DNA from: Escherichia coli
GTDB lineage: Bacteria; Pseudomonadota; Gammaproteobacteria; Enterobacterales; Enterobacteriaceae
Length of the DNA stretch: 10,264 bases
Assembly (NCBI RefSeq): GCF_003334315.1
Contig: NZ_QOWR01000089.1
Direction: 5' to 3' (one strand)
Shown: one piece after another, positions 2,313-8,048 of the stretch
Layout: the number at the start of each line of letters is the position of its first letter
Numbering within the stretch: the first letter of the stretch is position 1
Program-made: the position numbers and the translations under genes
Notes under the pieces: generated by a model
Seen by the model: the letters and a program-made list of their open reading frames with translations, nothing else
What the model was told of the DNA's origin: nothing
Database searches by the model: none

Positions 2313-3074
2313 TTAACGCGCCAGCCAACCGCCATCCACGGCAATGGTATAACCATTCACATAATCTGAAGCGCTGGAGGCAAGGAACACTACCGGCCCC
2401 ATCAGGTCACTCGGCAGTCCCCAACGGCCAGCTGGAATGCGGTCGAGAATTTCCGCGCTACGTTGTTCATCTGCCCGCAGTTGTTGAGTATTGTTGGTCG
2501 CCATGTAACCCGGAGCTATCGCATTAACATTAATGTTGTGTTTAGCCCATTCGTTCGCCATCAATCGCGTCACGCCCATCACACCGCTTTTTGATGCGGT
2601 ATAAGAAGGCACACGGATCCCGCCCTGGAAGGAGAGCATTGACGCGATATTGATAATCTTGCCGCCATTGCCTTGCGCGATAAAGTGTTTCGCCGCTGCC
2701 TGAGACATGAAGAATACGCTCTTGATATTCAGGTTCATGACATCGTCCCAGTCCTTTTCGCTGAACTCGAGAGCGTCTTCGCGGCGAATCAATCCGGCGT
2801 TATTCACCAGGATATCAATATGACCAAATTCCGCTACCGCGCGATCCAGCAGTGCTGGAATACCATCAATCTTTCGCAGATCGGCGGTCAGGCTTAAAAA
2901 ACGACGCCCCAGCGCTGTGACCTGCTTGATGGTTTCAGTCGGTTCAACGATGTTAATGCCAACAATGTCACAGCCCGCTTGCGCCAGCCCCAACGCCATC
3001 CCCTGGCCCAGTCCAGTATCACAACCAGTGACGACCGCAACTTTACCTTCGAGAGAAAATGCACTTAAAATCAT
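2313..3074 (-). CDS. kduD: 2-dehydro-3-deoxy-D-gluconate 5-dehydrogenase KduD (SDR family), 253 aa
   Basis: SDR motifs: glycine-rich cofactor motif VTGCDTGLGQG and catalytic YTASK (Y-x3-K). Full-length match to recalled KduD; sits 29 bp downstream of kduI, consistent with a kduI-kduD operon. Confidence 0.93.
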   Translation of the reverse strand: MILSAFSLEGKVAVVTGCDTGLGQGMALGLAQAGCDIVGINIVEPTETIKQVTALGRRFLSLTADLRKIDGIPALLDRAVAEFGHIDILVNNAGLIRREDALEFSEKDWDDVMNLNIKSVFFMSQAAAKHFIAQGNGGKIINIASMLSFQGGIRVPSYTASKSGVMGVTRLMANEWAKHNINVNAIAPGYMATNNTQQLRADEQRSAEILDRIPAGRWGLPSDLMGPVVFLASSASDYVNGYTIAVDGGWLAR

Positions 3075-3103: not shown

Positions 3104-3940
3104 CTAGCGCAAATCTTTAACGGCCACATGGTCCATATCATCAAAGACCTGGTTTTCACCGACCATGCCCCAGATAAAGGTATAAGCTTTGGTTCCGACG
3201 CCGGAATGAATCGACCAGCTCGGGGAGATCACCGCCTGCTCGTTATGCATCACAATGTGACGCGTTTCTTGCGGCTGCCCCATCATGTGGAAAACGCAGG
3301 CGTCATCATCCATATTGAAATAGAAATAAACTTCCATCCGGCGCTCGTGGGTGTGACACGGCATGGTGTTCCACAAGTTACCCGGAGCCAGCTCCGTCAG
3401 CCCCATACTCAATTGGCAGGTTTCCAGCACATCCGGGACAAAATATTTGTTAATAGTGCGACGGTTACTGGTGAGGTTATCGCCTAACGTGACTGGAGAT
3501 ACTTCGTCCGGGGTGACTTTTTTGGTGGGATACGTCGTATGCGCGGGTGCGCAATTGTAATAAAACTTCGCCGGAGTGGCGGTATCATCACTGGCAAAGA
3601 CAACTTCCTTTGCACCTTTACCAACATACAGGGCGTCGCGGTGACCGATTTCATAGCATTGACCATCGACAGTAATCGTACCGGCACCGCCAATATTGAT
3701 AACACCTAACTCGCGACGTTCAAGGAAATAACTTACGCCGAGTTGTTTACCCACTTCCCCGCCAACGGAAACCGTTTTAGTTACCGGCATAATGCCGCCA
3801 ACAATAATACGGTCAATGTGGCTGTAAACCATGGTGTACTCATCGGCGACAAATACCTCTTCAACCAAAAATTCATTGCGCAGCCCTTGGGTATCCAGCG
3901 TTTTTGCGTGCGCACTGTGGATGCTCTGTCTTACGTCCAC
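3104..3940 (-). CDS. kduI: 5-dehydro-4-deoxy-D-glucuronate isomerase KduI, 278 aa
   Basis: 278-aa product ([24 protein letters not shown]…) matching recalled KduI. RBS ggagg upstream of the ATG; KdgR-type operators lie upstream. Confidence 0.93.
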
Positions 3941-3984
3941 ATCAACCTCCGATAATCAGTGAAGCGTGAAAATAGAAAACGATA

Positions 3985-4001
3985 GTGAAACACTGTTTCG
4001 T
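3985..4001. promoter_or_regulatory. KdgR-type operator (proximal) upstream of kduI
   Basis: gTGAAACAcTGTTTCg is a near-perfect palindrome matching the KdgR box core (TGAAACA-N-TGTTTCA), ~45-60 bp upstream of the kduI start. Confidence 0.6.
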
Positions 4002-4047
4002 TTTCTCTATAAAGGGATGATATGCCCATGGGCTAGGGTTTTCAATT

Positions 4048-4073
4048 AAAAATAAAACAATGTTTCATTTTTA
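4048..4073. promoter_or_regulatory. KdgR-type operator (distal) upstream of kduI
   Basis: aaaatAAAACAaTGTTTcattttt, with the palindromic core AAACA-A-TGTTT flanked by an AT-rich symmetric context, ~110-130 bp upstream of kduI. Confidence 0.55.
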
Positions 4074-4226
4074 ATTTAAGGATTAAAAAAAGTGCAGTGT
4101 CGATCACGAATATGTCATGAGAATGGAAAAATGAGGGAGCCCAGAAAATGTATGTCGACTTGCCAGCCATCATTATTCAACAGATTAATGACGGCAGATA
4201 TTTATCGGTAAGGAGGAAATGCAGAG

Positions 4227-5408
4227 CTACTCGTCACGTTCAATGGTCAATGCCACGCCCTGGCCCCCGCCGATACAAAGCGTTGCCAGCCCTTTGCGGG
4301 CATTACGTTTCACCATTTCATGAACCAGAGAAACCAGGATTCGGCAACCGGAAGCGCCTATCGGGTGACCGAGTGCGATCGCGCCACCATTGACATTGAC
4401 CCGACGCTCATCCCACTCAAGCATCTTGCCAACCGAAAGCGCCTGTGCAGCAAACGCTTCATTAGCCTCGATAAGATCGACATCAGCCAACTGCCAGCCT
4501 ACACGCTCCAGGCAACGGCGGGTCGCATACACCGGCGCAATTCCCATCAATGCCGGATCTACACCAACGCTGGCAAATGCGCGGATGCGGGCCAGCACGG
4601 GTAAATTCAACGCTCGTGCTTTGGCTTCGCTCATCATCATTACCGCAGCTGCGCCATCGTTTATGGATGATGCATTCCCCGCGGTCACAGAACCGAGACT
4701 ATCAAATGAAGGATTTAAACGGGCTAAACCTTCTGCACTGGCGTCAGTGCGTGGCTGTTCATCGGTATCAACAACCAACGTCTGACCGTTACTTTGGATC
4801 ATTACCGGGACGATCTCATCTTTAAATCGTCCGGCGTCAATCGCCGCTCGCGCTTTTTGTTGCGAGCTAAGTGCGTAAGCATCCTGCAACTGACGGCTGA
4901 TGCCATATTCGCGAGCCAGATTTTCGGCGGTGACACCAATATGATAATCATTGAAGGCATCCCACAACCCATCATGCACCAGACTGTCAACCAACTGGCT
5001 ATTGCCAAGCTGTGCACCGGTGCGGCTATCAGTCAGAACATGTGGTGCGCGGCTCATGTTTTCCTGGCCACCGGCGATGACAATATCAGCCTCGCCACAC
5101 TGTATCGCCTGAGTAGCCAGATGCAGTGCTTTAAGCCCGGAACCGCAAACGTCATTAATAGTGATTGCAGAAACGCTATTAGGAAGACCACCTTTAATAG
5201 CCGATTGCCTTGCCGGATTCTGCCCTGCCCCTGCAGTCAACACCTGACCAAGAATTACTTCATCCACCGCATATGCAGGAACGCCGGTACGTTCTATTAA
5301 CGCTTTCACGACCAGACTACCAAGTTCCACGGCGGAATGACCCGCTAACGCACCGCGAAAGCAGCCGATAGGTGTCCGTAACGCCCCGACAATCACAACG
5401 TCTTTCAT
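4227..5408 (-). CDS. yqeF: Thiolase-family acetyl-CoA C-acetyltransferase paralog YqeF, 393 aa
   Basis: Thiolase signatures: active-site Cys in NDVCGSGL, C-terminal GHPIGASG and CIGGGQG motifs. The ATG at 5406-5408 is preferred over the in-frame GTG at 5409-5411 because RBS gagg is at appropriate spacing. Confidence 0.92.
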   Translation of the reverse strand: MKDVVIVGALRTPIGCFRGALAGHSAVELGSLVVKALIERTGVPAYAVDEVILGQVLTAGAGQNPARQSAIKGGLPNSVSAITINDVCGSGLKALHLATQAIQCGEADIVIAGGQENMSRAPHVLTDSRTGAQLGNSQLVDSLVHDGLWDAFNDYHIGVTAENLAREYGISRQLQDAYALSSQQKARAAIDAGRFKDEIVPVMIQSNGQTLVVDTDEQPRTDASAEGLARLNPSFDSLGSVTAGNASSINDGAAAVMMMSEAKARALNLPVLARIRAFASVGVDPALMGIAPVYATRRCLERVGWQLADVDLIEANEAFAAQALSVGKMLEWDERRVNVNGGAIALGHPIGASGCRILVSLVHEMVKRNARKGLATLCIGGGQGVALTIERDE

Positions 5409-5480
5409 CACAACCTCGCACCAATTAACAGTGCAATAGTAAATGATTGTTAATTACAGTTATCTTAATTGTTTAAAAAA

Positions 5481-5662: not shown

Positions 5663-6892
5663 ATGTCTAATATTTGGTCTAAAGAAGAAACTCTGTGGAG
5701 TTTCGCGCTCTACGGCACAGCCGTTGGTGCAGGCACGCTCTTCCTTCCTATTCAGTTAGGTTCGGCAGGGGCTGTGGTCCTGTTTATTACTGCTCTGGTC
5801 GCCTGGCCTTTAACATATTGGCCACATAAAGCCTTATGCCAGTTCATCCTCTCATCGAAAACATCAGCAGGTGAAGGGATAACGGGCGCAGTAACACACT
5901 ACTATGGCAAGAAGATTGGTAATCTGATTACCACGCTGTACTTCATCGCCTTTTTTGTCGTCGTGTTGATATATGCAGTGGCAATTACCAACTCACTTAC
6001 GGAACAGCTGGCAAAGCATATGGTTATTGATCTTCGCATCCGTATGTTGGTGAGTCTGGGTGTTGTATTAATCCTGAATCTCATTTTTCTGATGGGACGC
6101 CATGCAACCATTCGGGTAATGGGTTTTTTGGTATTCCCATTGATTGCCTATTTCTTATTTCTTTCCATTTACCTTGTCGGTAGTTGGCAACCTGATCTAT
6201 TAACGACCCAGGTAGAGTTCAATCAGAATACCCTTCACCAGATATGGATATCGATTCCCGTGATGGTTTTCGCCTTTAGCCATACGCCCATTATTTCTAC
6301 GTTTGCCATAGACAGACGTGAAAAATATGGCGAACACGCTATGGATAAATGCAAAAAAATTATGAAAGTCGCTTATCTCATCATCTGCATAAGTGTACTG
6401 TTCTTTGTCTTTAGCTGCCTGCTTTCTATTCCACCTTCGTATATTGAAGCGGCTAAAGAAGAAGGGGTCACCATTTTATCGGCGCTTTCTATGCTGCCGA
6501 ACGCCCCAGCATGGCTGTCAATTTCCGGGATTATTGTCGCAGTAGTTGCGATGTCGAAATCATTCCTGGGTACGTACTTTGGCGTTATTGAAGGTGCCAC
6601 GGAGGTCGTCAAAACAACACTACAGCAGGTTGGTGTAAAGAAAAGTCGTGCATTTAACCGCGCACTATCAATTATGTTGGTATCGCTGATCACCTTCATT
6701 GTTTGTTGCATTAACCCGAACGCGATTTCGATGATTTACGCGATCAGCGGCCCGCTCATTGCCATGATACTTTTCATCATGCCTACGTTGTCAACGTATC
6801 TGATCCCGGCGCTTAAACCCTGGCGTTCCATCGGAAATCTGATTACGCTGATCGTGGGTATCCTGTGCGTATCGGTAATGTTCTTTAGCTGA
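5663..6892 (+). CDS. yqeG: Inner-membrane transporter YqeG (HAAAP family, SdaC/TdcC/TnaB-like), 409 aa
   Basis: Highly hydrophobic multi-helix protein; N-terminus MSNIWSKEETLWSFALYGTAVGAGTLFLPIQLGSAG is typical of hydroxy/aromatic amino acid permeases. Matches recalled YqeG. Confidence 0.88.
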   Translation: MSNIWSKEETLWSFALYGTAVGAGTLFLPIQLGSAGAVVLFITALVAWPLTYWPHKALCQFILSSKTSAGEGITGAVTHYYGKKIGNLITTLYFIAFFVVVLIYAVAITNSLTEQLAKHMVIDLRIRMLVSLGVVLILNLIFLMGRHATIRVMGFLVFPLIAYFLFLSIYLVGSWQPDLLTTQVEFNQNTLHQIWISIPVMVFAFSHTPIISTFAIDRREKYGEHAMDKCKKIMKVAYLIICISVLFFVFSCLLSIPPSYIEAAKEEGVTILSALSMLPNAPAWLSISGIIVAVVAMSKSFLGTYFGVIEGATEVVKTTLQQVGVKKSRAFNRALSIMLVSLITFIVCCINPNAISMIYAISGPLIAMILFIMPTLSTYLIPALKPWRSIGNLITLIVGILCVSVMFFS

Positions 6893-6902
6893 TATCCATT
6901 GT

Positions 6903-6944
6903 GAATGGTTCAAAATTGCTACAATTTTGAACCATTCCAGTTTT
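6903..6944 (+). terminator. Rho-independent terminator after yqeG (long perfect hairpin)
   Basis: Perfect 16-bp inverted repeat gaatggttcaaaattg / caattttgaaccattc (6903-6918 and 6922-6937) followed by cagTTTTcat, beginning 11 bp after the yqeG stop. Confidence 0.7.
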
Positions 6945-7291
6945 CATAATGTTCATTCGTTATTATTCCGCACTATCACTTCCCTCATCATATCCTAGTA
7001 TTATCAGTTATTTAAACACACAAAGAGATCTGAACATCTTAAATAAGACTATTTAAGATGCATAACTTAGATTCGCAAGATATCTTCCGGTCATTCAAAA
7101 ACAATTTGCGATATAGATATTCTCATACCATGAGATAGTTATCTGAACCACCCTCAACCAGGTAAGATTAAATCAGTGAAACATAATCATATTTAATAAC
7201 GAGAAATGCATTTTAAAATGTCTTAATCAGAATTATAGCAAATACAGATTAATCGCAATTTTTCCCAGCAAAATTACAAAATCATGGTGTA

Positions 7292-7320
7292 TTGACATCA
7301 TCAATCACCAATGAAATTAT
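7292..7320 (+). promoter_or_regulatory. Candidate sigma70 promoter for yqeH
   Basis: Perfect -35 TTGACA (7292-7297), 17-bp spacer, -10-like AATTAT (7315-7320). Sits ~30 bp upstream of the yqeH RBS agggagg. Confidence 0.35.
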
Positions 7321-7351
7321 GCAATTATATACGGATAGGGAGGTTCTTAAC

Positions 7352-7984
7352 ATGGGGCTTTGTAGTCGTTATAAAAGTCTTACATGCAATAGTTGCTCAA
7401 TGCATTGCCAAATAATGCCAGAAGAGTCACCGCGTTTGCAGTACTGCGCAAACTCGTGTTTTTGTATGTGGCCCGAAGAAAGTTCATATTTTAATCGTGG
7501 TGTGGTAGAAGGTATCTTAACAAAAAACCACAATGCGAGATTAAGCGGATATATTTTTGTCGATTTTTCAGTAAGTTTTTTACGTCTATTCCTTGAAAAA
7601 TACTGGATTGACTATCTTGCAAGTACTGACATGGGGATTGTTTTAGTCAGCGACCGCAATATGCAATCGTTAGCTAATTACTGGCGAAAACACAACTCAG
7701 CAATATCTGCTGTCATATATAATGATGATGGTCTTGATGTTGCCAATGAAAAGATCAGACAACTATTTATTGGTCGTTATTTATCATTTACCAGAGGTAA
7801 CACATTAACTCAGATGGAATTCACCATAATGGGGTATATGGTTTCTGGTTATAATCCATATCAGATTGCTGAAGTTCTGGATATGGATATCCGTAGCATC
7901 TACGCGTACAAGCAACGAATCGAAAAGAGAATGGGTGGTAAAATAAACGAATTATTTATTCGTTCACATTCGGTCCAACATTGA
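7352..7984 (+). CDS. yqeH: LuxR/FixJ-type HTH transcriptional regulator YqeH with Cys-rich N-terminus, 210 aa
   Basis: C-terminal LuxR-type HTH (LTQMEFTIMGYMVSGYNPYQIAEVLDMDIRSIYAYKQRIEKRMGG). Start assigned to the ATG at 7352 (RBS agggagg 8 nt upstream), not the TTG at 7292 used by the ORF track. Confidence 0.85.
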   Translation: MGLCSRYKSLTCNSCSMHCQIMPEESPRLQYCANSCFCMWPEESSYFNRGVVEGILTKNHNARLSGYIFVDFSVSFLRLFLEKYWIDYLASTDMGIVLVSDRNMQSLANYWRKHNSAISAVIYNDDGLDVANEKIRQLFIGRYLSFTRGNTLTQMEFTIMGYMVSGYNPYQIAEVLDMDIRSIYAYKQRIEKRMGGKINELFIRSHSVQH

Positions 7985-8018
7985 TACTCAACGACCAGCC
8001 AGAATCATACTCTGTTTA

Positions 8019-8048
8019 TACGGGCATTTATTGAAATGTCCGTATTTT
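8019..8048 (+). terminator. Rho-independent terminator after yqeH
   Basis: Stem tacgggcatt / aatgtccgta (one G-U pair), loop tattga, followed by TTTT (8045-8048). Confidence 0.6.

Follow-up and report, generated by a model that had tools for sequence, protein, structure and literature searches.

Two conserved KdgR-type palindromes bracket the predicted promoter of kduI-kduD in Escherichia coli

The pectinolysis genes of Dickeya (pel, ogl, kduI, kdgT) are governed by an IclR-family repressor that responds to 2-keto-3-deoxygluconate (KDG) and whose operators overlap or follow the promoter, as they do in Escherichia coli. The consensus of this repressor, KdgR, was reportedly defined in Dickeya dadantii (Erwinia chrysanthemi) by Nasser and co-workers in 1994. 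Unlike D. dadantii, E. coli possesses neither pectinases nor ogl. The kdg regulon of E. coli (kdgK, kdgT, eda and tabA) and the two kduI boxes described here have the palindrome AAATGAAACAnTGTTTCATTT in common, as well as the repressor, the KDG/hexuronate pathway and the location at a promoter. This 21-bp palindrome is the KdgR consensus given in PMC5559549, where it is quoted from Rodionov 2000/2004. KdgR boxes at kduI were already predicted by comparative genomics (Rodionov 2000/2004) and, in the form in which those predictions are cited by later papers, nothing essential distinguishes the kduI boxes from them or from the sites of the kdg regulon. KdgR control of kduID in E. coli is thus already known, having been predicted about 20 years ago and since supported by mutant transcript data; in a genome studied as thoroughly as this one, it carries little discovery value.

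The arrangement at kduI differs from that of the other E. coli targets in the number of its sites. Whereas kdgK, kdgT and tabA each have one box upstream (at ≤6 mismatches), kduI has two strong boxes that bracket its promoter. The region upstream of eda gives no match to AAATGAAACAnTGTTTCATTT at ≤6 mismatches, and the eda site (TTATTGGACCGGTGTTTCAAA) comes from a de novo search. A further relative is the box of PlaR (YiaJ) in the plaR-yiaK spacer, which resembles the kduI boxes in half-site geometry and in the family of its protein, and PlaR binds a kduI fragment in vitro. Unlike the kduI boxes, however, the plaR-yiaK spacer yields nothing that fits the 21-bp KdgR consensus at ≤6 mismatches.

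The window analysed here is a 10,264-nt stretch of E. coli chromosome with the gene order araE-kduD-kduI-yqeF-yqeG-yqeH-yqeI-yqeJ (Table 1), in which kduI and yqeF were named from the RefSeq annotation and the remaining genes via NCBIfam. Many E. coli chromosomes, with kduI and yqeF annotated there, share its 701-nt section from 3700 to 4400 at 100% identity, and 5419 of the 5426 complete E. coli genomes contain a match to it. The regulated unit starts with kduI, from which kduD is separated by only 29 bp. Both boxes are located upstream of kduI, within the 286-bp spacer that lies between yqeF and kduI (3941–4226), and this spacer is AT-rich (43% GC over 3601–4200). Across both boxes, the kduI promoter and the 5' untranslated region, K-12 MG1655 and the window have the same sequence, the only difference being a single base adjoining box 2. 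Given this identity across the boxes and the promoter, experiments published for K-12 apply to the window.

Table 1. Features of the kduI region in the window, and two kdgF-like genes in loci of other genera (last two lines)
Feature	Position	Strand	Details and source
araE ORF	580–2127	minus	
kduD, 2-dehydro-3-deoxy-D-gluconate 5-dehydrogenase	2313–3074	minus	NCBIfam NF006528, 554 bits
kduI, 5-dehydro-4-deoxy-D-glucuronate isomerase	3104–3940	minus	GTG start; NCBIfam NF002091, 456 bits vs cut-off 250; RefSeq
Shine-Dalgarno GGAGG	3946–3950	minus	5 nt 5' of kduI GTG; kept in the 81-sequence alignment
Directly past box 1			mean information 0.15 bits per column
Box 1, promoter-proximal KdgR-type operator (putative)	3983–4003		core GAAACAcTGTTTC; kduI direction AAACGAAACAGTGTTTCACTA; centre 3993; mean information 0.81 bits per column, blurred by the 67/68 bp spacing variation
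Predicted transcription start, A	4010	minus	7 nt past the -10 hexamer; from promoter geometry
-10 hexamer TATCAT, kduI promoter	4017–4022	minus	promoter scan; PMC3946193
-35 hexamer TTGAAA, kduI promoter	4040–4045	minus	promoter scan; PMC3946193; mean information 2.0 bits per column, invariant in 80 sequences
Box 2, promoter-distal KdgR-type operator (putative)	4050–4070		kduI direction AAATGAAACATTGTTTTATTT; centre 4060; mean information 1.63 bits per column
Extended AT-rich dyad around box 2	4041–4079 (39 bp)		TTCAATTAAAAATAAAACA / TGTTTCATTTTTAATTTAA; repeat search
Conserved block, ~40 bp upstream of box 2	4093–4108		CGTGATCG (kduI direction); centre 4100.5, ~-90.5 from predicted start
yqeF	4227–5411	minus	
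yqeG	5663–6892	plus	followed by yqeH, yqeI, yqeJ
kdgF-like cupin gene, locus L030	5801–6127	minus	KdgR box 6141–6161
kdgF-like cupin gene, locus L020	7497–7823		KdgR box 7841

The initial annotation of this region had described a near-perfect palindrome at 3985–4000 and a second one with its core at 4048–4073. The sequence gTGAAACAcTGTTTCg lies exactly at the first position, where GAAACA-c-TGTTTC forms a perfect 6+1+6 dyad. At the second, the core is AAAACAaTGTTT at 4054–4065, and the range originally given takes in its extended arms. These arms (4041–4059 and 4061–4079 in the repeat search) comprise 19 nt each, are 89% complementary and leave 1 nt between them. The boxes are also direct copies of one another, as the segments 3988–4004 and 4055–4071 are 88% identical and 67 bp apart. 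The location upstream of kduI-kduD was borne out, while the distance between the palindromes, first put at about 65 bp, measures 67 bp from centre to centre. When the 21-bp pattern AAATRAAACANTGTTTYATTT was searched with ≤3 mismatches, the two boxes were the only occurrences in the window, and 200 shuffles returned 0 matches.

The assignment of these palindromes to KdgR, as made in the initial annotation, held against the published consensus, a de novo motif and an independent matrix. Box 2 agrees with AAATGAAACAnTGTTTCATTT at 19/20 positions (1 mismatch) and box 1 at 17/20 (3 mismatches); the accepted E. coli targets are no closer to it, with 3 mismatches for kdgT, 3 for tabA and 5 for kdgK. 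A scan of the window with the same consensus at ≤5 mismatches returned box 1 and box 2 only. Moreover, the best 17-mer common to the upstream regions of kdgK, kdgT and eda, obtained from K-12 without use of the window, is AWTGRAACNNTGTTTYA, and the individual 17-mers of this de novo search (AATGGAACACTGTTTTA / ATTGAAACGCTGTTTTA / ATTGGACCGGTGTTTCA) represent the same motif as the boxes.

A position-weight-matrix scan, one of the checks proposed by the initial annotation, ranked box 2 first and box 1 second in the window. The matrix, which was symmetrised, derives from the sites of kdgK, kdgT, tabA and eda, with the window left out. With these four training sites only, box 2 scored 23.4 bits, box 1 16.6 bits and the next site of the 10-kb window 8.8 bits. 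The score of box 2 exceeds that of the best site in 500/500 shuffled windows. For box 1, 3.2% of shuffled windows have a best site that scores as high, and 0/500 have a second-best site that does; among 286-nt shuffles with intergenic composition, 0.06% attain this score. In this matrix scan, no third site of the window exceeded 8.8 bits and kduD had no KdgR-type box of its own. Applied to 744 kb of other enterobacterial DNA, the matrix found 114 sites of at least 16.5 bits, 100 of which are located upstream of kduI. The remaining 14 consist of the four training sites, one site upstream of ygjV (itself a PlaR probe target; PMC6958661) and nine sites in other genera, of which two (L030 and L020) were traced to the vicinity of a kdgF-like cupin gene.

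The promoter scan of 3900–4300 gave a sole sigma-70 match, TTGAAA-17-TATCAT on the kduI strand, with 10/12 matches. Exactly these hexamers are reported for kduI by Shimada et al. (PMC3946193), among promoters bound by RpoD holoenzyme alone, and H-NS is noted there in the same yqeF-kduI spacer. Relative to the predicted start, box 2 extends from -60 to -40 (centre ~-50), with its edge 4 bp upstream of the -35 hexamer, and box 1 from +8 to +28 (centre ~+18), inside the 5' untranslated region; since the start site is predicted, the values of -50 and +18 may be off by a few bp, and our literature search found no experimentally mapped kduI start site. Given these positions, the operators bracket the RNA polymerase binding region. 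As is expected of KdgR operators, the boxes are found at the promoter of a gene for KDG/hexuronate/pectin catabolism.

Conservation was assessed by a one-genome-per-species scan, which yielded 80 Enterobacteriaceae loci with a KduI 91–99% identical to the query (81 sequences with the window); the genera include Citrobacter, Enterobacter, Kluyvera, Kosakonia, Lelliottia, Trabulsiella and Pseudocitrobacter. Across the 81 sequences, the upstream regions have diverged save for a series of blocks, namely CGTGATCG, box 2, the -35 region (TAATTGAAAACC), the TA..AT of the -10 hexamer, box 1 and the Shine-Dalgarno sequence. Positions 1, 2, 5 and 6 of the -10 hexamer are conserved across genera, and positions 3 and 4 are variable. 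Box 2 is kept in about 79 of the 80 loci, 15 bp from the -35 sequence TTGAAAA, with a median score of 19.5 bits. Box 1 mostly reads AAACGGAAC-nnn-GTTTCG across genera; its median score is 10 bits, and it reaches at least 5 bits in 67 of the 81 sequences. Among its 48 distinct variants, AA (7–8) and TT (14–15) are invariant and the central 3 nt vary freely. Overall, each box combines conserved half-sites with variable central bases, as does the motif itself. The boxes are spaced 67 bp apart in 53/81 sequences and 68 bp apart in 19/81 (72/81 together).

Of 5426 complete E. coli genomes, 5416 carry the 156-nt control region, at 92–100% identity. Four divergent alleles differ inside the boxes mostly at the centre or where the consensus is degenerate (TGTTTC to TGTTTT; central N), while one of the four carries a change from GAAAC to GAAAT in box 2 that lies outside the consensus. 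Motif, independent matrix, promoter position and conservation together support the two palindromes as putative KdgR-type operators.

Galacturonate and glucuronate are both catabolised to KDG, the inducer of KdgR in Dickeya. A published reporter fragment, which maps to 3908–4264 with both boxes inside, was induced by galacturonate or glucuronate, 7- to 11-fold under aerobic and 19- to 54-fold under anaerobic conditions (PMC3578941). The initial annotation had tied its reading to a change of kduI expression in a kdgR deletion, and published K-12 data go in that direction. The kduD mRNA was increased in the kdgR knockout JW1816 (PMC6958661), and an evolved strain with a deletion of 39 genes, kdgR among them, over-expressed kduI/kduD (PMC6892915). 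The former study calls kduD a known KdgR target and, with reference to Rodionov 2000/2004, attributes KdgR boxes to kduI, kduD and eda. It should be noted that the kdgR-mutant data are steady-state mRNA levels, so that the effect on kduI/kduD could in principle be indirect, and kdgR and plaR affect each other's mRNA (PMC6958661). Our literature search returned no EMSA or footprint of purified E. coli KdgR on the kduI boxes and no mutagenesis of either box, and the PPTP-seq paper makes no mention of kdgR or kduI.

PlaR (YiaJ), an IclR paralog of KdgR, acts on the same region. Its gSELEX selected kduI, a kduI probe was shifted by PlaR in EMSAs with micromolar protein, and the knockout of plaR derepressed kduD, as indicated by an increase in mRNA (PMC6958661). 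The EMSA probe maps to 3921–4332. Given that PlaR binds this fragment and that its loss derepresses kduD, KdgR is probably not the sole user of the boxes. A site with the same TGAAAY-N3-GTTTCR half-site geometry, ATTTGAAATCAAGTTTCGCAT, occurs in the plaR-yiaK spacer and makes cross-recognition by KdgR and PlaR plausible. The kduI boxes show 3–4 mismatches to the printed PlaR box ATnTGAAACnnnGTTCAnTT, and the printed motif itself has no match in the plaR-yiaK spacer at ≤4 mismatches; the symmetrised motif, TGAAAC-N3-GTTTCA, matches that spacer with 2 mismatches. Sequence alone cannot decide between KdgR and PlaR as the repressor assigned to each box.

Moreover, PMC8085971 counts kduI among the CRP-activated genes and reports a shift of its promoter by CRP in EMSA. 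The block at 4093–4108 is at least 95% conserved in the 81 sequences, with a conserved core CGATCACG at 4101–4108. It contains a weak CRP-like core, TGCAGTGTCGATCACG (TGCAG-TGTCGA-TCACG), which has 4/10 mismatches to TGTGA-N6-TCACA; this block offered no TGTGA-N6-TCACA site at class I/II distance, and four other places in the spacer match equally well. Given the published binding of CRP to the kduI promoter, the block may be a CRP site, or else a site for another factor. We withheld the assignment of a CRP site, as our own scan gave weak CRP cores only.

We consider it highly likely that the two boxes are KdgR operators which control the sigma-70 promoter of kduI-kduD, which are shared with PlaR and from which repression is relieved by KDG. 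KdgR, an IclR-family repressor, would occupy box 2, abutting the -35 hexamer, and box 1, just past the predicted start. From these positions, bound repressor would cover both edges of the RNA polymerase site, and repression of the kduID promoter would presumably result from steric occlusion of the polymerase. Once the breakdown of hexuronates or pectin fragments has produced KDG, KdgR would be released and kduID transcribed; for E. coli, the role of KDG as inducer is proposed by analogy with Dickeya KdgR. CRP would add a positive input from further upstream. PlaR, which would recognise the same GAAAC-N3-GTTTC geometry, very probably shares both sites with KdgR, and this shared use is already included in the reading preferred here. 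The dual-operator repression suggested by the initial annotation was upheld in part, namely as to the presence of two conserved sites that bracket the kduI promoter.

Several other explanations deserve consideration. In a spacer as AT-rich as this one, palindromes might arise by chance, or they might, given that yqeF has its end at 4227 on the same strand, serve as its transcription terminator; the likelihood of either is negligible. Chance is excluded by the shuffle statistics, and the base-specific conservation agrees with the motif of unlinked KdgR targets. A terminator scan of 3900–4300 returned no terminator-like site (GC-rich stem-loop with U-tract), and a search of the window against Rfam returned no match. 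The box 2 hairpin was rejected as an intrinsic terminator of yqeF, being of -10.4 kcal/mol as RNA, nearly all A-U and without a U-run. We also regard it as unlikely that box 2 is the sole working operator, with box 1 either decayed or acting at the RNA level, as a stem-loop in the 5' untranslated region that affects stability or translation of the kduI mRNA. Box 1 does lie inside the predicted transcript (+8 to +28), the segment 4012–3975 folds at -9.6 kcal/mol (z = -3.4), and box 1 scores below box 2 in nearly every genus. However, the half-site bases are conserved throughout the 48 box 1 variants, AA and TT without exception, and the changes are one-sided, 0/5 core pairs showing a compensatory double change. 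Conservation drops to 0.15 bits per column directly past the box. Moreover, the same motif occurs at untranscribed sites (box 2, kdgK, kdgT, tabA), any palindrome folds as RNA, and the hairpins fold no better.

The boxes might instead be mainly operators of PlaR, which controls the yiaK-S operon, with KdgR acting on kduID indirectly through plaR expression. This would accord with the presence of kduI in the PlaR gSELEX list, the shift of the 3921–4332 probe, the increase in kduD mRNA in the plaR knockout and the change in plaR mRNA in a kdgR mutant, as well as with the TGAAAY-N3-GTTTCR geometry shared by the plaR-yiaK spacer, the strongest PlaR target. Yet the plaR mRNA rises rather than falls in the kdgR deletion, which should increase repression by PlaR, and kduD is nevertheless derepressed. 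The boxes, and box 2 especially, also carry the AAAT...ATTT arms of the KdgR consensus, which they match better than do kdgK or kdgT. Furthermore, the EMSAs used micromolar PlaR, and YiaJ ChIP-exo highlighted only yiaJ/yiaK in a paper that makes no mention of kduI; a main role for PlaR with indirect KdgR action is, in our view, very improbable. Cooperation between the boxes, in which one KdgR tetramer or two interacting dimers would loop or wrap the promoter between them, appears possible but doubtful. IclR-family proteins form dimers and tetramers, and the spacing is fixed at 67–68 bp in 72/81 sequences from many genera, both of which would be consistent with cooperation. The spacing is, however, equally well explained if each box is tied to the promoter hexamers, box 2 lying 15 bp from TTGAAAA. 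In addition, 67–68 bp correspond to ~6.4–6.5 helical turns and place the sites near opposite faces of the helix; since they are out of phase, a simple repression loop is not favoured.

It is improbable that the near-invariant spacing of 67–68 bp reflects a specific promoter-enclosing complex, whether a KdgR tetramer or a mixed assembly of KdgR and PlaR. If true, a mixed assembly would integrate two different sugar-acid signals at one promoter. To our knowledge, no promoter-enclosing architecture of that kind has been described for KdgR. With KdgR operators shared by PlaR as the preferred reading, the strongly conserved box spacing and the 160-bp region common to KdgR, PlaR and CRP are the remaining points of interest. 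The motif and coordinates given by the initial annotation were accurate, which makes this locus a useful calibration point.

Further KdgR boxes are present in related loci. In Enterobacter cloacae, ogl still lies opposite kduI and the region that the two share holds an extra KdgR box, whereas in E. coli yqeF lies on that side and the extra box is absent. The E. cloacae ogl gene encodes an oligogalacturonate lyase (L028, 2525–3700, minus strand; Pfam PF14583, E = 1.7e-202) and is divergent from kduI, and the KdgR box lies at -241. A far-upstream box, TATCAAAACAnnGTTTCA, occurs in many other genera at -340 to -390 from kduI. In Citrobacter werkmanii, it is found inside a yqeF-kduI spacer of 480 bp without obvious gene; the E. 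coli spacer is shorter and the box is absent from it. Several Citrobacter species, with L030 and L020 of Table 1 among their loci, also possess a 108-aa cupin gene (Pfam Cupin_2, kdgF-like) beside ygeA, preceded by a very strong KdgR box of 23.4 bits, and this gene is absent from the window.

The -35 region TAATTGAAAACC is conserved well past the hexamer itself (about 4023–4047 in the window). In Kosakonia, Phytobacter, Siccibacter and others, it extends to a third KdgR-like dyad, AATTGAAAACnTGTTTTAGCC, with its centre ~23 bp downstream of box 2, and of this dyad the left half alone (TTGAAAAC) survives in E. coli. We did not count the third dyad as a canonical KdgR site because its AAAC and GTTT blocks are 2 nt apart instead of 3, with a centre one base shorter.

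A preprint (PMC11188072) describes a stress-induced microprotein of 23 aa, encoded in an intergenic region beside kduI in E. coli 536 and predicted to bind KduI. The 3941–4226 spacer of the window holds no ORF of 23 codons; those present there have 21, 27, 32, 39 and 43 codons. On the minus strand at 4166–4195, ~30 nt past the yqeF stop, an inverted repeat GCCGTCATTAAT...ATTAATGATGGC of -18.2 kcal/mol (z = -3.1), without U-tract, might form a structure at the 3' end of yqeF.

A sequence deposited as a 'Deltaproteobacteria' metagenome-assembled genome (L005; JACZXR010000090.1) matches 936 nt of the window at 98% identity, covering kduI, 20 nt upstream of it and ~50 nt of kduD between unrelated flanks. 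It probably represents an assembly chimera or E. coli contamination of this MAG, and, since its resemblance to E. coli is confined to kduI and the 20 nt upstream, we excluded it from the conservation statistics. The araE frame is open in the window, where it forms an ORF of 515 codons from an upstream TTG; in strain W5-6 (L001, 1880–3299), whose kduI region is that of the window, araE is annotated as a frameshifted pseudogene. Finally, the GC content is 34–39% across yqeH, yqeI and yqeJ (6600–10264) vs ~52% for araE to yqeF. The low GC content of 6600–10264 is consistent with a horizontally acquired island, which we take to be a remnant of ETT2.
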